A stretch of DNA of 64,000 bases from an uncultured Anaerolineales bacterium (GTDB lineage: Bacteria; Chloroflexota; Anaerolineae; Anaerolineales; UBA6663), in NCBI GenBank assembly GCA_964608265.1, contig CAZSNP010000002.1, positions 41,387 to 105,386 on the forward strand, read 5' to 3'. Below the pieces are notes generated by a model. The model ran no database searches. It saw only the letters and a list, made by a program, of their open reading frames with translations, and had not been told where the DNA came from. This document shows positions 3,301 to 20,404 of the stretch, one piece after another. Made by a program: the position numbers and the translations under genes. How positions within the stretch are numbered: the first letter of the stretch is position 1; every line of letters begins with the position of its first letter.

Positions 3301-4279
3301 GCAATTCGTAATGCAGGCGCTCCTTCACTTCGCCGGAGTCGGCGCGCGAGCCATAGCGCCGGCGCAACCCCTCGGCGCACAAGTGGCGCAGATAGCTCTC
3401 GGCCGTCTCGCCCTCGGGCACCGGGAATTGCGGCAGGTGATAGCCCTTGGTCTTGAGGTTGACGTTGCAGCGTTCCGCAATCAGCAACGTGTTGCGGATG
3501 GCAGCCGGCACCTCGGCGAACAGTTCGCTCATCTCCTGCGGCGTGCGCAGATAGTAATCCTGCCCCGACATCCGCATCCGCTTGGGGTCTTTGAGCACGC
3601 AGCCGGTCTGGATGGCGAGCAGGATATCCTGCAGCCGCGCCTCCTCGGGCTGGATGTAGTGCACGTCGTTGGTGGCGATGAACTGCGCCTCGTAGCGCGG
3701 GCCTAACTCGAGCAGCGCCCGGTTCAGCGTGTGGATGGCGGGGATGTCGTGATGTTGCAGCTCGAGGAAGAAGCGGTCGTGGCCGAAGACCTCGTAATAC
3801 CAGTCGAGCTTGCGGCGCGCCTCGTCCGGCGCCCCGTCTTCGATGGCGCGCGGAATCTCCGACGCCATGCAGCCGCTGGTGCAGATCAGGCCTTCACTGT
3901 GCGCGGCGAGGAAGTCGCGGTCGATGCGCGGGTAGTAGTAGAAGCCTTCGAGTTGCGCCGCGCTGGCGATCTTGAGCAGGTTTTGGTAGCCGGTTTGATT
4001 TTCGGCCAGCAGCAACAAGTGATAGGGCTTCTTGTCTTTGACGGGGTCGCGGTCGGTCATGCCGCGCGGCGCGAGGTAGGCCTCCAGGCCGATGATGGGC
4101 CTGATGTCATTCTCGGTCGCGGCGCTGAAGAACTCGATGACGCCGTGCATCGTGCCGTGGTCGGTGATGGCCAGCGCCGGCATACCCAACTCTTTGGCGC
4201 GCTTGACCAGGCGCTTGATGTTGCTGAAGCCGTCGAGCAACGAGTACTCAGTGTGGCAGTGCAAGTGAGCGAAGGACAT
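374..4279 (-). CDS. dnaE: DNA polymerase III alpha subunit (PHP domain N-terminus, long C-terminal extension)
   Basis: 1301-aa ORF. N-terminus MSFAHLHCHTEYSLLDG (PHP), then the GFAAYFLIVWD, PDIDLDF, FGTLGARAAIRDVGR, LKVDFLGL and YRPGP blocks typical of DnaE. Confidence 0.95.
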   Translation of the reverse strand: MSFAHLHCHTEYSLLDGFSNIKRLVKRAKELGMPALAITDHGTMHGVIEFFSAATENDIRPIIGLEAYLAPRGMTDRDPVKDKKPYHLLLLAENQTGYQNLLKIASAAQLEGFYYYPRIDRDFLAAHSEGLICTSGCMASEIPRAIEDGAPDEARRKLDWYYEVFGHDRFFLELQHHDIPAIHTLNRALLELGPRYEAQFIATNDVHYIQPEEARLQDILLAIQTGCVLKDPKRMRMSGQDYYLRTPQEMSELFAEVPAAIRNTLLIAERCNVNLKTKGYHLPQFPVPEGETAESYLRHLCAEGLRRRYGSRADSGEVKERLHYELRVINEMGFAAYFLIVWDLCRYALNNGIWYNARGSAAGSIVAYVLDITTVEPLAHGLIFERFLNPGRVSMPDIDLDFQDDLRYKLLDYCVQKYGGDKVAQIITFGTLGARAAIRDVGRVMDIPLGDVGKIAEKIPNIPGKPITIPEALEQVPELKEIYSRGLEVNGEQRLDKSLTRDLIDTAAQMEGVVRNVGTHAAGVVIADKPILEYLPLHRPTSNAEDTPIKTVTQFEMGILEKLGMLKVDFLGLITLTIMQRACQLIEQRRGVKFDLTNIPVDDPRSFELMGRGQTLGVFQVEGTGMTRYLTQMKPKNLDNIIAMISLYRPGPLEFIPSYIRRMHGEEPVEYRHASLEPIFNETYGIPVYQEQIMRAAVELAGYTMSESDDLRKAIAKKQKESLQKHQEKFIKGAVARGMPPSAAEGIFADWEEFARYGFNKSHAADYGVISVQTAYLKAHYPVEYMTAVLSASRGDTDKVALYVEDCKAMGIAVLPPDVNRSQVDFSIEDREAQEADGGRQKAGNQPSAIRFGMAAIKNVGEGAVQVILGARAAGGPFASLDDFCQRTDLRAVGKRALECLIKVGALDRFGDRGQMLEGLDQFVNASAAHFRAAEAGQMTLFDGGGGFTGVQLPRVKVVVTQREQLRWEKELIGLYVSAHPLQPVMEQLGGVITHTSAQLGADDHGKPVTMAGVVTHLRTHTTKKGDPMGFVTVEDVQGSLDLVIFPKTWREVSRWLAAEQIVVIYGKVDAAGGTPKILVDSLRQDFKMANAPAPRPAPVQATMFTPDDVAPLPPDDAPLPRGYVPPPPDDVPYDEEFMQPANVAPIGRAPQPLAATNVAVKEVAASATNGSPAAEAPVVVAPASANVATGNGLRNGNGAHPRPAPQTTSTQWQRVIVTLTASGDPLKDRKRLQAVYRVLTRQRGPDEFEFVIHEAEREQQLRFPNDRIAFTAEARRKLEALVGADAIRVMAWSETFAGDY

Positions 4280-10004: not shown

Positions 10005-10397
10005 ATGGCAACGATAAAGGACTATCGCGAGTTGCGGGTGTATCAAGTGGCGTTTGAAGCTGCCATCGAGGTATATGAATTGACGAAGACGTTTCCCATT
10101 GAAGAACGCTACAGCCTGACCGATCAAATCCGGCGGGCATCACGTTCTGTGTGCGCCAACATTGCCGAAGCCTGGCGCAAGCGGCGCTATCCGCAGCATT
10201 TCGTCAGCAAGCTCAGCGACGCCGACGCCGAAGCGGCTGAAACAATCGTCTGGCTCGACTTTGCCTTGCGTTTCAACTTCCTTTCGCCCGAACGGCATCA
10301 GGAATTGCAGGGCCGCTACAACCAAATCTGTGCTCAACTCACAGTCATGATGTCGAGCCCTGGGCAGTGGGCCTATAAATCATCCTCACGTTCATAA
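10005..10397 (+). CDS. four-helix-bundle protein (23S rRNA intervening-sequence protein / Avd family, PF05635-like)
   Basis: MATIKDYRELRVYQVAFEAAIEVYELTKTFP.EERYSLTDQIRRASRSVCANIAEAW.. is the family signature. GGAGGGAG SD lies 5 nt upstream of ATG 10005. Confidence 0.85.
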   Translation: MATIKDYRELRVYQVAFEAAIEVYELTKTFPIEERYSLTDQIRRASRSVCANIAEAWRKRRYPQHFVSKLSDADAEAAETIVWLDFALRFNFLSPERHQELQGRYNQICAQLTVMMSSPGQWAYKSSSRS

Positions 10398-12504: not shown

Positions 12505-15045
12505 ATGTACGCCGAGATCGCCGTCAACGTCGCCCACCTGAGCGGCACGTTTCACTACGAAATCCCCCGCGACCTTGAAAAACAGTTGCGGGCCGGCCAC
12601 CTCGTCACCGTGCCGTTCAGCGGGCGCGAGGCGCAGGGCGTCGTCGTCGCGTTGAGCGATGAGTCGCCCGTCGACGGCGTTCCCAGGGAACGCGTCAAGC
12701 CCGTCATCGGTCTCGTTGATCCCGAGCCGGCCCTCACCCGCGCGCAGCTCGACCTCGCCTATTGGATCGCGCACACCTACCTCGTCTCACTCATCGACGC
12801 GCTCACCCTCATGCTGCCGCCCGGCCTGAGCAAACAGGCCGAGGTGGTGTATTCGCTCGTGGACGGCGAGCTTGCAGCGGACGCTCCAGCGACGACCGCT
12901 AAAGCGGCCACTACCAACAATCTCCAGTCATCGCTTCTCAATCTTCTGAAAGAACGCGGCGCCCTTCGTTCGCGCCAGCTCGACCGGGCGTTTCCGAAGC
13001 AGAAGTGGCGGCCGGTCGCCGAAGCGCTCGTGCGGCGCGGCGTGCTGAGCAAGCACAGCCGCTTGGAGCCGCCCTCGGTGCATGCCAAGCAAGTGAAGAC
13101 CGCGCGCCTCATCGCCAGCGTGCCGCAGCTCGAGGCGGTGCGCGGCTCGCTCTCGCGCTCGGCAGCCAAGGCCAAACGTTTGCAAGCCGCGCTCGATTTT
13201 CTGGGCCGTGAGGCTAAGCCGGTGGAGGTGCCGTGGGTGTACGCGGCCTCGGGCTGCGACCTGCAGGACCTGCGCGACCTGGCCGAGATGGAACTCGTTG
13301 ACCTGGGCGAGGCCGAGGTGTGGCGCGACCCGCTGGCCGGCAAGGAGTTCGTGCCCGACAGCGCCCCGCCGCTCACCGACGATCAACAGCGTGTGTGGGA
13401 CGCCGTGCGCTCCTCCCTCCACTCCCCCCCTTCCACAATTTTGCTGCACGGCGTCACCGGCTCGGGCAAGACCGAAATTTATCTGCGGGCGCTGGAGGAA
13501 GCGCTGAAGCAGGGCAAGCGCGCGCTGGTGCTTGTGCCCGAGATCGCGCTCACGCCGCAGACGGTGCGCCGGTTCGCCGCGCGCTTCCCCGGCCGCGTGG
13601 CGGTGTGGCACAGTGAACTCGGCGAGGGCGAGCGTTACGACACCTGGCGGCGCGCGCGTTCGGGATTGGTGGACATCGTCATCGGCGCGCGCAGCGCGTT
13701 GTTCGCGCCGCTGCCCGACCTCGGCGTGATCGTGCTGGACGAGGAGCACGACGAGGCCTACAAGCAGGATCCGCCGCAGAGCGTGCCCTATCACGCGCGC
13801 GAGGCGGCGATTGAGTATGCCGGGCAGCTCGGCGCGGTGTGCCTGCTCGGCTCGGCCACGCCGGATGTGGTGACGTTCCATCGCGCGCGGCGCGGCGCGT
13901 ACACCTTGCTCGAACTGCCGCTGCGCATCATGGGCCACGCGCGCAAACTCGAGGAGCAGGCCGAACGGTTCCACGTCGCCTCGCGCTATCACTCGCTCAG
14001 CGCCGAGACGCAGACGATCGATCTGCCGCCGGTCGAGATCGCCGACATGCGACACGAGTTGCGCATGGGCAACACCACGATGTTCAGCCGCAAGCTGCGC
14101 GACTATCTCGAAAACGCCATCGCGCAGAACGAGCAGGCCATCCTGTTCCTCAACCGGCGCGGCACTTCGACGTTTGTGTTCTGTCGCGATTGCGGCGAGG
14201 CGCTCAAGTGCCCGAACTGCGACACCACCCTCACCCATCACGGCTCGGCGCAACAACTGACCTGCCACCACTGCGGCCATCGCCAGCCGCAGCCGGAGCG
14301 TTGCCCGAACTGCCACAGCCCGCGCGTGAAGTTTTTTGGATTGGGCACCGAGAAGCTGGCCGAGGCGGTGACGGCGGAGTTCCCCGGCGCGACGGTGCTG
14401 CGCTGGGATCGCGATGCCACGCGGACGAAGGGCGCGCACGAACTCATCCTGCGCACGTTCAGCACGCAACAGGCCAACGTCCTCGTCGGCACGCAGATGA
14501 TTGCCAAGGGCCTCGATCTGCCGCTGGTGACGCTGGTGGGCGTGATCTCGGCGGATGTCGGGCTCGGGCTGCCCGATTACCGCGCCACCGAGCGGACGTT
14601 TCAATTGCTGACGCAGGTGGCCGGGCGCGCGGGCCGCGGCCTGCTGGGTGGCCGGGTGGTGTTGCAGACCTATCAGCCGGAGCATTACGTGATTCAGGCT
14701 GCGTCACAGCACGATTACGCCGGCTTCTACCAGCGCGAGATCGCCTACCGCAAAGACCTCGGCCTGCCGCCCTTCCGGCGCGTGATGCGGCTGCTCTATC
14801 GCCACGCCGATTACTCGCGGGCCGAGGCCGAGGCCAACGTCGTGGCGGCGCAACTGCGGCTGCGGGTGAAGGATGGCAAGCTGCTGAACACCGACGTCGC
14901 CGGCCCGGCCCCGGCCTTTTTCGGCAAGCTGGCCGGTGAGCATCGCTGGCAGATTATCGTGCGCGGCCCCGACCCGGCCGCCCTGGCGCGCGGGCTGCAA
15001 CTCAAAGGCTGGGTGGTGGATGTGGATCCGTTGAGCACGCTGTAA
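12505..15045 (+). CDS. priA: primosomal replication restart helicase PriA
   Basis: MYAEIAVNVA..GTFHYEIP start. Walker A GVTGSGKTE, DEEHD box, Cys-rich zinc region CRDCGEALKCPNCDTTLTHH...LTCHHCGH...CPNC. The track's upstream 70 codons lie in the MITE and are rejected. Confidence 0.9.
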   Translation: MYAEIAVNVAHLSGTFHYEIPRDLEKQLRAGHLVTVPFSGREAQGVVVALSDESPVDGVPRERVKPVIGLVDPEPALTRAQLDLAYWIAHTYLVSLIDALTLMLPPGLSKQAEVVYSLVDGELAADAPATTAKAATTNNLQSSLLNLLKERGALRSRQLDRAFPKQKWRPVAEALVRRGVLSKHSRLEPPSVHAKQVKTARLIASVPQLEAVRGSLSRSAAKAKRLQAALDFLGREAKPVEVPWVYAASGCDLQDLRDLAEMELVDLGEAEVWRDPLAGKEFVPDSAPPLTDDQQRVWDAVRSSLHSPPSTILLHGVTGSGKTEIYLRALEEALKQGKRALVLVPEIALTPQTVRRFAARFPGRVAVWHSELGEGERYDTWRRARSGLVDIVIGARSALFAPLPDLGVIVLDEEHDEAYKQDPPQSVPYHAREAAIEYAGQLGAVCLLGSATPDVVTFHRARRGAYTLLELPLRIMGHARKLEEQAERFHVASRYHSLSAETQTIDLPPVEIADMRHELRMGNTTMFSRKLRDYLENAIAQNEQAILFLNRRGTSTFVFCRDCGEALKCPNCDTTLTHHGSAQQLTCHHCGHRQPQPERCPNCHSPRVKFFGLGTEKLAEAVTAEFPGATVLRWDRDATRTKGAHELILRTFSTQQANVLVGTQMIAKGLDLPLVTLVGVISADVGLGLPDYRATERTFQLLTQVAGRAGRGLLGGRVVLQTYQPEHYVIQAASQHDYAGFYQREIAYRKDLGLPPFRRVMRLLYRHADYSRAEAEANVVAAQLRLRVKDGKLLNTDVAGPAPAFFGKLAGEHRWQIIVRGPDPAALARGLQLKGWVVDVDPLSTL

Positions 15046-15374
15046 TGCGCCTCGTCTTCACCTTCATCGGTGGGAGCGGGGAGCCGTTGTTCCACAAGCG
15101 CGCGGCGGAATGGATCGCTCAGGCCAGGGCGCTCGGCGCCCGGATGGAGCCGATCACCAACGGCACGCTGCTGGCCGAGCAGACGGTGCGCGAGCTGGTG
15201 GAGGCCCGCCTCGATCCGTGGTGGGCGTCCATTGACGGCGCCACCCCCCGGTTGAGGCCGCATTGCCCGCGACAGCCCATAACCCGGGCCGAGCGGCGAA
15301 CGTTCGTGATCGCGCGAGAGGAACCATCCCAACCGTTCCCATCTTCTCCTCACATCGTCTCGGATTTACCATAG
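15045..15374 (+). pseudogene. radical-SAM enzyme remnant (internal fragment lacking the CxxxCxxC N-terminus)
   Basis: RLVFTFIGGSGEPLFHKRAAEWIAQARALGARMEPITNGTLLAEQTVRELVEARLDPWWASIDGATP matches the GGEPL...TNGTLL...SIDG core only. It starts inside the priA stop (TAATG) and sense is lost after a C-run near 15247. Confidence 0.55.
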
Positions 15375-15501
15375 ATTTACGGATTTCAGCAGCACGCTTT
15401 CAAAATACAATTGCGACGTTGGCGCAGGTCGGTATAGGAGTCAGTATCCGTCTTCAGCTAACTCAGGCATCGGGCCTGTGTTTCCGTACTCGGAGGACAC
15501 T

Positions 15502-17367
15502 ATGCAGATACAACCAAGGATCATCCGTTTATGGGCCGTCATCGGCGCCGCCCTGCTGGGCATGGTGCTGGCCGGCTGCGTGGTCGCTGCCTTCTCGCTG
15601 CCGGCCGGGGAGGTGGGCCACAGCTCGGCTGCAGAGATGCTAAATGATGAGGAGCCCGATGTCGTCGTCTACAACAATGTGCGCTACGTCGTCTTTGCCG
15701 GTGAGGAAACTTCGGGCGGCGACTACGAGCTTTTCATTCGCGGCTTTGACCTGAACAACAATCCGGTCACACCCCTTACGCGATTGACGAACAATTCAGG
15801 CTCCGACTATTCAGCGCGGATTGCGTCCGGGGAGAACGGCTTTCTGTATGTCGCCTGGGCCTACGTCTTGGGCGGGAATCGGACGGTCTGGTGGCTCAAG
15901 GTGCGCGCCAGCGACCTGGCGATTGTGGCCGGCCCGAGTCTGCTCTCAGGGGCATTTACTTCTCTGGACAACGTGCAAATCGCCTATTCGCCCTTCTACT
16001 CCACAACGGCCGTGGTGTGGGCGTCGGGCAACCCCACCCTCACGATTTACTACAACCGGGTGGTGACCGACACCAACGTGGGCACGCCGCTGATCGTATC
16101 GCAGGGCACCGGCTGCGCGGGCGCGGCCTTCACCCAATACGAGCCGCGTATGACGCGCACTTACCCCAACGGCACGTTCACACAAATCGCCTGGATTGGT
16201 CGCAAAGATTCGAGTGGCACAGCCGATGGCGTGTACTGGCGTGAGATTGACAATGAATTCGGGACAGCCTTTACGAACTGTCTTGAGCCCTCGTTTGGCA
16301 CCGGATTTACCGGCGGCCAGGAGCACGACGTCGAGATCAGCGTTAATCGTTTTTTTGGCAAGAGTTTTGTCACCTGGTCACGGGATACCGGTGGAGGCCA
16401 GTACGACGTCATCATGCGCCCGATCAATGCCATTACGGGCAGTCTGTGCAGCGCATACCTGGTGTCGAATAGCAACCCGAATGTTGACGAGATTGATCCC
16501 AGCATCGGGGCCGGGCGTGTAATGAGCGACTGGGTTCACCTGGCCTGGGAGAGCACCGGCGCGGCGAACGCCATCAACTACGAGCTGATTGACGCCTCGG
16601 TTTGCGCCGCGACACCAGTCAGCGTCAGTGGCGTACTGACCCTCAGCACGACCCCCTTGACCTCAACGGACGATGTGGATAAACCGCAATTGAGCGTATA
16701 CCCCGATCTCAGCTCCAGCGCGCTGAATTTGAACGCCGCCACCCTGACGGCTGAGCAGCTACAGTTCTTGACGGCCACCGGACAGGTGAGGCCGGAGCAG
16801 GCCCAGGCTGCCCTGGCCGATGGGACGATCACGGCTCAGGAGGCTTACGCAATGGCCTTCGGCCCTCGGCCCAACGCGCAGGCGGCGGCTCTGCCCGCGC
16901 CGCCCACTGGAGAGGACAGCGGTGTGGCCGCGCCCCCCGAATTCATCCTGCCTGATTGCGCCGCGGAGCCGTATAACGACAAATGCCAGGCGGCGGCCCG
17001 GCGATTATCAGCCGGTGCGGGGGTTTCGCCTCAGGCGACCTGCGGCCCCAACGCCGTCGACCACGTCGCGGTCAGCTTTCTCGATGACACCAACAACCGG
17101 ATGTATGGGTGGTTGTTTGCCGCCGGCGATGTGGACATCGGCTTCGGGTGCGGCACAGGGGCGTACTTGCTCGGAGGGCGGTTCGCATACCTGGCACGCC
17201 AGGATACGACACTGGCGGATTACGCCGACAGTTATCGTGTCTTGGTGGATCCATTGGGCTTTGCGACGTTTGTGTGGGCGGGCCTGGATTCAGGCGCCCC
17301 AGCCAACGATGAGGTGTATCTTGTCACCTCCAAGATACCGGTCTTTCTCCCCGTAGTTCGGCGTTAG
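15502..17367 (+). CDS. hypothetical secreted/anchored protein, probable beta-propeller-like repeats
   Basis: GGAGG SD 6 nt before ATG 15502. N-terminal TM LWAVIGAALLGMVLAGCVVAAF. Recurrent strand-end motif [VI][AT]W (YVAWAY, AVVWAS, QIAWIG, FVTWSR, HLAWES). One 60-nt line counted gave 58% GC. Confidence 0.6.
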   Translation: MQIQPRIIRLWAVIGAALLGMVLAGCVVAAFSLPAGEVGHSSAAEMLNDEEPDVVVYNNVRYVVFAGEETSGGDYELFIRGFDLNNNPVTPLTRLTNNSGSDYSARIASGENGFLYVAWAYVLGGNRTVWWLKVRASDLAIVAGPSLLSGAFTSLDNVQIAYSPFYSTTAVVWASGNPTLTIYYNRVVTDTNVGTPLIVSQGTGCAGAAFTQYEPRMTRTYPNGTFTQIAWIGRKDSSGTADGVYWREIDNEFGTAFTNCLEPSFGTGFTGGQEHDVEISVNRFFGKSFVTWSRDTGGGQYDVIMRPINAITGSLCSAYLVSNSNPNVDEIDPSIGAGRVMSDWVHLAWESTGAANAINYELIDASVCAATPVSVSGVLTLSTTPLTSTDDVDKPQLSVYPDLSSSALNLNAATLTAEQLQFLTATGQVRPEQAQAALADGTITAQEAYAMAFGPRPNAQAAALPAPPTGEDSGVAAPPEFILPDCAAEPYNDKCQAAARRLSAGAGVSPQATCGPNAVDHVAVSFLDDTNNRMYGWLFAAGDVDIGFGCGTGAYLLGGRFAYLARQDTTLADYADSYRVLVDPLGFATFVWAGLDSGAPANDEVYLVTSKIPVFLPVVRR

Positions 17368-17396
17368 CGTCTGCACACTGCATCGCGTATCAACAT

Positions 17397-17430
17397 ACCG
17401 GGCCTCCAGCGAGAGGCCCGGTGTCTTTTA
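17397..17430 (+). terminator. rho-independent terminator
   Basis: ACCGGGCCTC-cagcga-GAGGCCCGGT followed by GTCTTTTA. Confidence 0.7.
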
Positions 17431-18510
17431 CGCCGAGGCCCCGCCGTACGCGCGCAGGCCGCGGCGCCAGACGAAGCGCGCGATGAGGAACAGCGCCACG
17501 GTCAACGCCGCCGCGCCAGCTAACGTTTGTGGGGTGAGGCGATTGGTCAGCGCTTCGGCGGGGACGGTGACGGCGAAGGCCACCGGCACGAGGAAGGTCA
17601 GCCCGGCCCGCATCCAGTCGGGATAGAGCGTGACGGGATAGCGCCCCGCCGCGAACACGCCCTCGAACAGGTTGACCATCTCATCCACGCGGATGAACCA
17701 GAACGCCACCGAGGTCAGCATCAGCCCGCCGAGCAGCAGCGCGGCTGCGAAGGCCAGCGCCTGCAACAGCCCGACCGCGCCCTGCAACTCGGGATAGACG
17801 GCCTGCATCCGGCCCACAAACGCCGCGCCGTAGTTCTGCAGCAGCGCGGCCACATCGCTGGCCGGGTCGCCGAGGCCGGCCATGCCGAAGTCGAGCACGC
17901 CGCACAGTTCAGCGTTCGCATCCACCAGCAAATGCTCCGACCACAGATCGCCGTGGATGAGGCGCGGCTCGGCCTCGATATTGCGCGGGTCGCCGAGCAT
18001 CGAGTCGAACAGGTGCGTCGCCCAATCGCGTTGCTGCAGCATCAGCAGCGGATAGAGGTGCTGCCCGGCCTCGCGCCGCAACTGCGTCTGCGCGGCGTGC
18101 GTCACCGGCGCGCGGGTGGGCGGGAGGCCGTCGGCGGGCGTGGTGTGCAGCGCGTGCAGGAAGCGGCCCAACTGCTCGGCGAGCCGCTGTTGCGCGGACT
18201 CGGACAGCGTGCGCGGCAGATCGTTGCGCAGCGCCTGGCCGGCGATGAGGCGATAGGTCATGAAATCCGGCCCGCGCCGGTCGGGCGCCGGGATGGAGAC
18301 CGGGACGCGCGGTTGAAGCCGGTCGAGGATCAGCAGCTCGTCTTGCAGGATGCGGGCGCGGCGTTCGTCTTTGGCGAAGCGGAAGACGCGCTCACCGCAG
18401 AAGACGACGTCGTTCATCAGGCCCTCGCCGTTGAAGCGCGCTGAGGTCAGATCGGCGTCGGGGGCGAGGGCCCGAATTCGGTTTTCGTACTGAGCGATGA
18501 AAGGGTGCAT
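17428..18510 (-). CDS. chimeric ORF: aminoglycoside/choline-kinase-type phosphotransferase (APH family) N-terminal ~250 aa fused in frame to the C-terminal ~110 aa of an ABC-2-type permease
   Basis: APH motifs LIHGDLWSEHLL and VLDFGMAGLGDPASDVAAL. From about aa 255 the sequence becomes TM-rich: FWFIRVDEMVNLFEGVFAAGRYPVTLYPDWMRAGLTFLVPVAFAVTVPAEAL...FVWRRGLRAYGGASA, the typical C-terminus of ABC-2 (former DUF990) permeases. Confidence 0.65.
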   Translation of the reverse strand: MHPFIAQYENRIRALAPDADLTSARFNGEGLMNDVVFCGERVFRFAKDERRARILQDELLILDRLQPRVPVSIPAPDRRGPDFMTYRLIAGQALRNDLPRTLSESAQQRLAEQLGRFLHALHTTPADGLPPTRAPVTHAAQTQLRREAGQHLYPLLMLQQRDWATHLFDSMLGDPRNIEAEPRLIHGDLWSEHLLVDANAELCGVLDFGMAGLGDPASDVAALLQNYGAAFVGRMQAVYPELQGAVGLLQALAFAAALLLGGLMLTSVAFWFIRVDEMVNLFEGVFAAGRYPVTLYPDWMRAGLTFLVPVAFAVTVPAEALTNRLTPQTLAGAAALTVALFLIARFVWRRGLRAYGGASA

Positions 18511-18864
18511 GTCAGTTTTCACTCGGCTGGCTAAACGCAAACACGACAGGCCGGTGAGCCTGCGGAGCCGATGAAAACCGGGCTACACGGTCAGGCGCGG
18601 GCCGGCGAGGACGGGAGGTTGGCAGCGGAGCAACGGATATCGGCACTATTCGCTCACCGTGTGCACGCACGGGAATCCGGTAAAGACCGGCGCGGTCTTC
18701 GAGACCGCATCGGTCTGCCCGGCCGCAGCCGGTCTCCGGCAAGGTTGTTTTACAATCCGCTCCATTCGCATGGAATGAAGCCGCGCGCGACGGGCGGCAT
18801 CTAATCCCCAGGCCACTCTGCTCGCCCCTTTACTGCGTCGTTTGCTCCTCATCCCGCTGGTACC

Positions 18865-19290
18865 GTGGCCAACCGCCTCCAACTCGATGTGCGCAGCCTC
18901 GGCCTCAACTTCCGCCCGCCCGCCAATGCCGGCGTGCTGCCCGACGGCCGCAACTGGGTGTGGTTCATCGCCTTCTTCGGCACGCCCAAGCGGGTGTGGA
19001 CGGAGATGGGCAGTTCGATTTCGACGCCGCTCGACATCCCGCTGGAAGCGGCGCGGTTGCTGGCCGTTGACCCCGACGCGGTAGCGTATATCCGCGGGCG
19101 TTCCCTCCCCCAACCCGACGGGTTCGCCAAATTACTCTGTCAGGCCTGGCGGGCCGATGGGTTGAAGGCCTGGGAGGTCACTCTCATGCACGAGTTGGAT
19201 TTGTACGGGGTGCGGCCGCCCCTCATCAGCGGCGGCGCGCTGCCACCCGAGCGCGAACGCCTTCAGCGTGCGAAGAGGCGCTCAGCGTGA
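18865..19290 (+). CDS. hypothetical protein (GTG start)
   Basis: 141-aa ORF with GC3-rich codon usage, followed by a strong terminator. No recognisable motif. Confidence 0.4.
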   Translation: MANRLQLDVRSLGLNFRPPANAGVLPDGRNWVWFIAFFGTPKRVWTEMGSSISTPLDIPLEAARLLAVDPDAVAYIRGRSLPQPDGFAKLLCQAWRADGLKAWEVTLMHELDLYGVRPPLISGGALPPERERLQRAKRRSA

Positions 19291-19306
19291 CCGTGATCCA
19301 TCCCAC

Positions 19307-19343
19307 AAAAAAAGTGGAGGCCTCAATGAAGCCTCCACTTTTT
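19307..19343. terminator. bidirectional rho-independent terminator between convergent genes
   Basis: A-tract, AGTGGAGGC-ctcaatgaa-GCCTCCACT, T-tract. Confidence 0.8.
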
Positions 19344-19360
19344 GAGTCACCCCGCGGGCG

Positions 19361-20404
19361 TCAGCTCGTCAGTTGCGGTTGATCACTCATGGCCGGCGGC
19401 GCGGCCGGGGCGGAGGGCGCTGGCGTGTTGAAGTAGGGCCGCGTGCCGAAGCGCGTGAGCACCACCGCGCCTAACCCGATGCAGGCGACGACGAGCCAGG
19501 CCAGGAAGCTGAAGAGCCCGCCCACGCCGGGGAATAGGTTGATGCCGTTCACCAACAGCGTGATGATGAAGGTGCCGAGCGCCGCCGACACCACCGGGCT
19601 GAGGAGCGGCCACTTGAGCGCCGACGCCAGCCGGTCGCCGAAGAGGATGCCGAAGGCCAGCCAGCCGAAGAACAACGCCAGCGCGTACACCAGCAAACCG
19701 ATCAGGCTGAACGGCGCCAGACAGATTGTGAGGGCGACGACGACGGCCACGATGGGCACGGCCAGCAGCGTCAGCAGCCCGACGCCGCCCGACAGCATGG
19801 GCGCCGAGCCGATGGCGGCGGTGACGCGCGTCGTCTGATCCGGCAGGAAGAGCATCGTCACCACGGCCAGCAGCCCGGCGACCAGCGCCAACCCGAACGA
19901 CGTGAACACCCCCCACACCAGCGACACCGCGTAATCGAACGGGCCGTAACGCACCGACGGCACTTCGACAAAATCGGGCGCCGGGATGGGCACCGGCAGG
20001 CCGTCGAAATTGAAGTCACCCTCGAAGCCGGTGGTCTCGCTGCCCTGCACCTCGTAGCCTTCCTCCGTGCTCACCGAGCCACCCGTGCGCACCAGGTTGC
20101 CCTCGACGACGGAGGTGGCCTGCAAATCGAGTGAGCCGCCAAAGGTGACGACATTCCCTTTGACCGTGCCGGCCAGGGTGACGTTGCCGCCCATCATGGT
20201 CAGGTCGCCGGTGACGACGGCCCCCGCCTCGATGGTCGTATTGCCGCCGAAGATGGTCAGGTCGCCGGTGACGGTCTGACCACTCTTGATAACGTTGTTG
20301 CCGCCCCAGATGGTGCGGTCGGCCAGGCCGCTGGCGAAAGCGGTCGAGGCCCCGGTTGCCCACAGCAGCCCCATTGCAAAAATCAGAACGAGTAGCTTCT
20401 TCAT
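19361..20404 (-). CDS. membrane protein: signal peptide, Gly-rich beta-helix-like repeats (bactofilin/DUF583-like), then ~6 TM helices
   Basis: MKKLLVLIFAMGLLWATGASTAFA; repeats GDLTIFGGNTTIEAGAVVTGDLTMMGGNVTLAGTVKGNVVTFGGSLDL. The start overlaps the anti-sigma stop (ATGA 20401-20404). Confidence 0.7.
   Translation of the reverse strand: MKKLLVLIFAMGLLWATGASTAFASGLADRTIWGGNNVIKSGQTVTGDLTIFGGNTTIEAGAVVTGDLTMMGGNVTLAGTVKGNVVTFGGSLDLQATSVVEGNLVRTGGSVSTEEGYEVQGSETTGFEGDFNFDGLPVPIPAPDFVEVPSVRYGPFDYAVSLVWGVFTSFGLALVAGLLAVVTMLFLPDQTTRVTAAIGSAPMLSGGVGLLTLLAVPIVAVVVALTICLAPFSLIGLLVYALALFFGWLAFGILFGDRLASALKWPLLSPVVSAALGTFIITLLVNGINLFPGVGGLFSFLAWLVVACIGLGAVVLTRFGTRPYFNTPAPSAPAAPPAMSDQPQLTS

Follow-up and report, generated by a model that had tools for sequence, protein, structure and literature searches.

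How a single open reading frame (ORF) comes to begin as an aminoglycoside phosphotransferase (APH)-family kinase and to end as an ABC-2 permease, and whether its product is a new kind of protein or what is left of two older ones, is the question raised by this locus. In the window, meaning the whole 64-kb (64,000-nt) stretch of DNA that was analysed, the chimeric ORF occupies 17428-18510 on the minus strand and comprises 360 codons followed by a TAA stop (ORF list and translation), as given in a first-pass annotation made from the sequence alone, whose quoted motifs are all present. ATG 18510 is the right start, because intact homologues likewise start MHP.... The same annotation described an APH half and an ABC-2 permease half, and each is matched by its own Pfam domain: residues 25-241 by APH (PF01636; 94.6 bits against a cut-off of 23.2, profile 3-227 of 239) and residues 262-359 by ABC2_membrane_6 (PF06182; 86 bits against a cut-off of 22, profile 131-229 of 229). 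Both domains are incomplete, with scores far above chance. The kinase motifs K47, H186-G-D188, and D207-F-G209 are kept in the chimera and are invariant across both homologue alignments, and the three hydrophobic helices described for the tail are seen in its hydropathy as three hydrophobic segments.

Two origins had been put forward for this architecture: a deletion that made one ORF from two neighbouring genes, or a genuine membrane-tethered kinase. The latter would be a selected protein, its kinase core anchored by three helices, with the first permease helix replacing a helix lost from APH. If this were true, an expressed membrane-anchored small-molecule kinase would represent a new membrane protein made in one microhomology deletion step. 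Full-length homologues commonly sharing the architecture had been named as the mark of a real conserved fusion, and the architecture was found in one cluster only. In a word-indexed search of 5.8 billion proteins, no dual-domain protein occurs among the best 120 matches beyond the query's own 90%-identity cluster, and the other matches cover one half of the chimera each. A HMMER search of 1.84 billion representatives returned 4,453 matches, of which the best 150 align with either query residues ~1-270 or ~240-360 and none with both; a true dual-domain relative would top the ranking. The query's cluster holds five further 360-aa variants at 92-99% identity, together with intact 283-aa APH proteins. 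The fused form is thus limited to one tight cluster of at least 92% amino-acid identity among billions of proteins, a distribution that argues against a tethered kinase.

The nearest separate homologues of the two halves are a 283-aa APH (P0002, 78% identical) and a 249-aa permease (P0007, 90%), which share one metagenomic contig, L001, and are found together again in a second sample (L002). On L001, the gene order is APH, ABC ATPase, permease 1 (270 aa), and permease 2 (249 aa), all as separate genes, in DNA that is ~87% identical to the window. By blastn, window 17785-18618 corresponds to L001 10726-9890 (86.9% identity), and window 17426-17792 corresponds to L001 13595-13208 (86.6% identity). 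These two pieces share 8 nt of the window and are separated by a gap of 2,489 bp in L001 coordinates, with the rest colinear. The shared 8 bp, CCGAGTTG, occur on L001 at 10719 in the APH gene and at 13208 in permease 2, both in codon phase 2, and as a single copy in the window at 17785-17792. When L005, the closest intact APH, is taken as the left-side reference, CAG is added and the repeat extends to 11 bp, CCGAGTTGCAG, at 17782-17792. For breakpoints placed at random, the chance of 8 shared bp is ~4^-8, and the repeat is therefore a mechanistic signature.

DNA comparison with relatives thus divides the ORF, all on the minus strand, into three parts. The APH-derived part, with codons 1-240 unambiguous, lies at 17793-18510 (86.9% nt identity to L001 9890-10726, and 92-95% to L005 and L006). 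The deletion junction, carrying codons P240-E-L-Q243 and one copy of the microhomology, lies at 17782-17792, where the first-pass annotation had estimated 17750-17790. The permease-2-derived tail lies at 17428-17781, with 117 codons and the native stop, and retains the last three hydrophobic segments (86.6% nt identity to L001 13208-13595; PF06182; hydropathy; alignment with 11 full-length homologues). In protein terms, the chimera consists of APH 1-243 joined to permease-2 residues 126-249 minus 7. What was lost comprises APH residues 244-283, the entire ATPase gene, the entire permease-1 gene, and permease-2 residues 1 to ~122-125. No ABC ATPase or permease-1 homologue was found in the 64-kb window (tblastn, E<=1e-3), which extends to the whole window the earlier statement that no ABC ATPase gene is adjacent.

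The proposed deletion between two genes is thereby borne out, as relatives carry the separate full-length genes and the difference is a single repeat-bounded gap; the synteny check suggested at the outset accordingly turned up relatives with intact 283-aa APH and 249-aa permease genes. The two genes were indeed fused by deletion, but they were not adjacent, being the first and fourth of the series APH-ATPase-permease 1-permease 2. Ancestrally, the site carried four co-directional genes, one for an APH(2'')-like kinase, one for an ABC ATPase, and two for PF06182 permeases. The middle of the cluster would then have been lost when the copies of CCGAGTTG(CAG), which lie 2,489 bp apart, one near the APH 3′ end and the other in the turn between permease-2 hydrophobic segments 3 and 4, recombined illegitimately or underwent replication slippage. 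The equal codon phase of both repeat copies allows read-through to the permease's native stop. A later slippage deletion of 21 bp would have shortened the first helix still present by seven conserved residues, and the ORF would still be open because the event was recent and in frame by chance. Weighing all of the evidence, the chimeric ORF is very probably the remnant of one microhomology-mediated deletion in a decaying cluster. Counted against this reading is that both large deletions in the clade are in frame, for which the chance is 1 in 9.

The opposite order of events, in which the fusion came first and insertion of the ATPase and permease genes followed, was considered and rejected: full-length members of both parental families are widespread, the fusion is unique, and L005 retains at the same site part of an ATPase gene as well as the 3′ end of the permease. 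Because its genomic context differs from that of the window, L001 may be a paralogous or transferred copy of the cluster and not a strict orthologue.

Another concern is that the junction could be an assembly artefact, with a contig mis-joined at a repeat common to the APH and permease genes. The source is evidently a metagenome-assembled genome, and related strains with differing versions of the locus do co-occur, such as L001 and L004 in one sample. However, the identical junction and the same 21-bp deletion, within the same 360-aa architecture, are present in L004, L008, L009, and L010, representing four further samples, and two more 360-aa protein variants come from other assemblies. L008 and L009 are 99.8-99.9% identical to the window across 8 kb, on contigs of 34-45 kb, and L004 is a more diverged carrier of the fusion (95-97% nt identity to the window). 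The junction is not a misassembly, since at least five contigs of up to 150 kb carry it, each assembled independently, and these derive from different samples and from different pipelines (NCBI, JGI, Logan). In addition, a repeat of 8-11 bp falls far under assembler k-mer sizes and is too short to mislead an assembler, and a carrier-specific variant, GAA at codon 241, lies only 4 nt from the junction, such that real reads must span it. The probability of an artefact is, in our assessment, negligible.

The consequences for the kinase half can be read from its intact homologues. The APH part of the chimera is without its last 40-41 residues (244-283 of the intact proteins), as judged from these homologues and an alignment with PDB 3TDW, and not the ~60 residues estimated initially. 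The lost segment contains ten positions that are invariant among eight homologues, down to 39% identity. In an AlphaFold model, which covers the intact APH only (pLDDT 87.6, pTM 0.85), the segment forms a helix at 242-267 followed by short terminal helices. The helical subdomain is the substrate-binding framework in APH(2'') enzymes (PMC3691515), and from its position in the model the lost helix appears to be part of this helical-subdomain bundle. The C-terminal lobe of the chimera's APH is therefore incomplete. For the tethered kinase, it is suggestive that the new hydrophobic helix begins exactly where the lost APH helix starts, and that neither the catalytic residues nor the native upstream region has been lost. 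The ten invariant positions are nonetheless gone, which counts against a selected enzyme.

On the permease side, the junction interrupts permease 2 at the turn joining segments 3 and 4 of its six hydrophobic segments, and three of the six remain. The tail bears a second lesion at 17713-17725 on the minus strand, where, by DNA comparison with L001, 21 bp were deleted in frame between the repeats GCTGATGCTG and GCTGATGTTG. The deleted codons specify YSFWLML, a run of seven residues that is absent from the window and present in 11 of 11 full-length permease-2 homologues, with Y, F, and W nearly invariant. This further loss of conserved residues argues against a selected tethered kinase. The permease would be expected to adopt an N-in, C-in topology, consistent with its basic C-terminus. 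Segment 4 would then natively run from outside to inside and would be ill-suited to carrying a cytoplasmic kinase on its N-terminus; in a tethered kinase with native topology, the junction ahead of segment 4 would place the kinase on the wrong side of the membrane. With the conserved C-terminal helix gone and a permease segment of unsuited orientation joined in its place, the kinase function of the chimera is probably lost, the product being inactive or unstable. Its transport function is certainly gone, as the ATPase and the partner permease are both missing and half of the membrane domain is all that is left.

The DNA on either side of the ORF retains native ends of the cluster. The native APH upstream region is found at 18511-18618 on the minus strand, with homology to L001 up to 108 nt ahead of the ATG (blastn); a promoter scan gave no match to a sigma-70-type promoter upstream of the chimeric ORF, and a repeat scan found no tandem repeats within window 17300-19400. 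Directly past the stop codon, within the 60-bp spacer to a convergent 629-aa gene, lies a predicted GC-rich inverted repeat, CCGGGCCTC-tcgctg-GAGGCCCGG (17398-17421, minus strand), read directly from the sequence. This region corresponds to the native 3′ end of permease 2; the permease-2 3′ end and the spacer are retained in L005, L006, and L106, where homology to the window restarts at 17467.

The surroundings of the ORF also yield several observations in their own right. The intergenic region upstream of APH varies in length: L106 has, at 3440-3738 (window ~18550-18670), a 21-nt tandem repeat, TCCGTTGATCCGCTGCCAACC, in 14.2 copies, called there as a 151-aa 'PLPTSVD' ORF, the window has about one TCCGTTGATCCGCTGCCAACC unit, and in this region the alignment of the window with L004 contains 79 gap columns. 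Divergent from APH, at window 18865-19290 on the plus strand, is a 141-aa ORF with no Pfam match and a dN/dS of 0.6-0.9 against relatives, which is either a doubtful gene or one in very fast evolution. The convergent 629-aa ORF (621 aa in relatives), at window 15478-17367 on the plus strand, likewise has no Pfam match; a comparison of the window with L004 across its final 139 codons gives nine nonsynonymous changes and one synonymous change, and it may be a fast-evolving or surface protein. At window 15045-15374 on the plus strand, with a start overlapping the priA stop, is a 109-aa ORF that is a truncated Radical_SAM remnant (Pfam profile 49-126 of 166; 26 bits, under the 29.5 cut-off) with no CxxxCxxC motif. 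It is also present in L008 and L009, L005 has a 45-aa ORF only in this place, and it is probably another deletion scar. Downstream of priA, at window ~10005-10397 (L008 18114-18506), a small gene with 23S_rRNA_IVP and bAvd Pfam matches lies between the CP_ATPgrasp and the Alpha-E/transglutaminase genes.

Sister lineages show what became of the same cluster elsewhere in the clade. L005, L006, and L007 have both flanks in common with the window at 92-93% nt identity, one flank comprising an ECF sigma factor, an anti-sigma factor, a 358-aa gene, and a 145-aa gene, and the other flank the convergent 621-aa gene and priA. Between these flanks, the APH gene is intact and is followed by an ATPase remnant without its first ~72 codons, Walker A included, which matches only positions 79-136 of the Pfam ABC_tran profile. 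This remnant is fused in frame to the final ~12 permease-2 codons (ending DDERRGLRAYGGASA and a stop), creating a second in-frame chimera (L005 3666-4241; L006 2836-3441; L106 4735-5340) by a deletion of 1.79 kb within an imperfect 24-nt repeat. Its presence at the same site means that the full four-gene cluster once stood there and was cut down twice, independently. In L106-L110, from five samples, the L005-type remnant occurs together with an APH gene damaged by a frameshifting deletion of 43 bp and by a premature stop. The L001 type is the only relative with both permeases intact besides APH, and its ATPase gene (L001 10955-11938) is interrupted at codon 109 by an in-frame stop (GNRNQ*QWD; L in L005). 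As this stop is seen in two samples (L001 and L002), even the 'complete' cluster may be non-functional. Repeats flank each of the lesions of 21 bp, 43 bp, and 1.79 kb, and both point lesions consist of nonsense codons. That sister lineages are losing both APH and the transporter counts against a selected fusion. At ~45 more distant loci, the ATPase-permease 1-permease 2 genes are all intact and no APH gene was found near them, and the adjacency of APH is therefore specific to this clade, with no conserved functional pairing. The nearest named relative, an Anaerolineales MAG, has the permease only. From the names that its nearest relatives bear, the window probably belongs to an uncultured member of the Anaerolineales (Chloroflexota).

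Divergence along the locus raises the possibility of a different route to the same junction. Between the window and L004, the flanks and tail are ~1% diverged, while divergence is 5-13% in a patch between ~19270 and the junction, with the last difference 4 nt from the junction. Such a pattern would fit homology-facilitated illegitimate recombination on uptake of diverged DNA in place of intragenomic slippage, with one end anchored upstream of APH and the other at the microhomology, and with the same outcome for the ORF. The APH segment is also where strains that are otherwise nearly identical most often exchange alleles: over 8 kb, 16 of 17 mismatches between L008 and the window, and 6 of 8 for L009, fall inside APH, and the mismatch patches of both, at window 17899-18424, match alleles of other lineages. 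In addition, the three APH haplotypes group differently by block (codons 1-96 versus 97-201). However, both carriers share the junction and yet differ inside the patch, such that a single uptake event is insufficient without further recombination; strain mixing in the metagenome assemblies could contribute to the patch, and every other lesion in the clade is a simple deletion flanked by repeats. The sharp change in divergence at the junction may reflect recombination among co-occurring strains, strain mixing, or formation of the deletion on uptake of diverged DNA, and we regard the last of these as unlikely. Deletion between the two repeat copies within one genome remains the preferred route.

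Substitution patterns bear on whether the fused protein has been under selection. Between the window and L001, the tail has a dS of 0.31 and a dN/dS of 0.09, with 7 nonsynonymous to 26 synonymous changes. Between the window and L004, which both carry the fusion, the count is 4 nonsynonymous to 2 synonymous (Fisher p=0.04, on six substitutions only), and all four nonsynonymous changes fall in the conserved WFIRVDEMVNLF motif. The neighbouring control genes, with a dN/dS of 0.1-0.26 with outliers and a heterogeneous dS of 0.03-0.26, limit this test. The only tail changes to follow the fusion are mostly nonsynonymous and lie in a family motif, which may point to relaxed selection and is counted against the tethered kinase. 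For comparison, the dN/dS of the ATPase remnant between L005 and L106 is 0.49. The APH part has a dN/dS of 0.26 between the two carriers and 0.22 between intact genes, the former of which would speak for a maintained kinase; the APH part is mosaic, however, making branch-wise dN/dS unsafe as a test of selection after the fusion, and its divergence between carriers may predate the fusion. The ORF is open in every carrier, from at least five samples, including a variant with an 8% protein difference, and the catalytic motifs are unchanged, which favours the tethered kinase and is counted against the remnant. Taken with the narrow distribution and the structural losses on both sides of the junction, a selected membrane-tethered kinase is highly improbable.

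The chimera is ordinary gene decay and not a new kind of protein, and it opens no long-standing question. It does carry an annotation risk, as sources label the ORF an 'aminoglycoside phosphotransferase family kinase' and it could be miscounted as a resistance gene or as a novel architecture. The locus also offers a natural allelic series, with at least four lesions of one APH-ABC cluster in closely related, co-occurring strains of uncultured Chloroflexota, which displays the course of gene loss and the chance origin of in-frame chimeric ORFs.

Among known systems, the kinase half is closest to the APH(2'')-type phosphotransferases, the closest solved structure being APH(2'')-IIIa (PDB 3TDW), with the capreomycin phosphotransferase Cph also related. 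Residues 8-275 of an intact homologue (P0127) align with 3TDW 8-288 (E 1e-32), and the chimera has the HGD and DFG motifs and the N-lobe lysine. Unlike these enzymes, the chimera is without the C-terminal 40-41 residues, the long conserved helix included. APH(2'')-IIIa and Cph are its best NCBIfam matches, but with 91 bits against a cut-off of 625 it is not the APH(2'')-IIIa resistance enzyme; the second match scores 52 bits against 390, and no named resistance family is reached.

PF06182 (ABC2_membrane_6) permeases form three-gene ABC-2 exporters with an ATPase and two permeases. Some sources call them the 'viologen exporter family', and a literature search on that family found nothing directly applicable. 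Like them, the tail ends at the family's conserved ...RAYxGASA terminus, and its identity to the C-terminal half of the nearest relative's permease 2 is 90-97%. Unlike them (normal size about 250-260 aa), it retains only profile positions 131-229, is missing the first three segments (~125 N-terminal residues), and has no ATPase or partner permease in the window. Both domains being incomplete, the chimera belongs to the APH and PF06182 families by descent only.

Deletions between short direct repeats, arising by replication slippage or microhomology-mediated illegitimate recombination, are a classical source of chimeric ORFs and pseudogenes in gene loss. The present case resembles them in the single copy of an 8-11 bp repeat at the junction and in its narrow, recent distribution. 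Nothing essential differs; what is unusual is that four decay states of one cluster are found in co-occurring strains.
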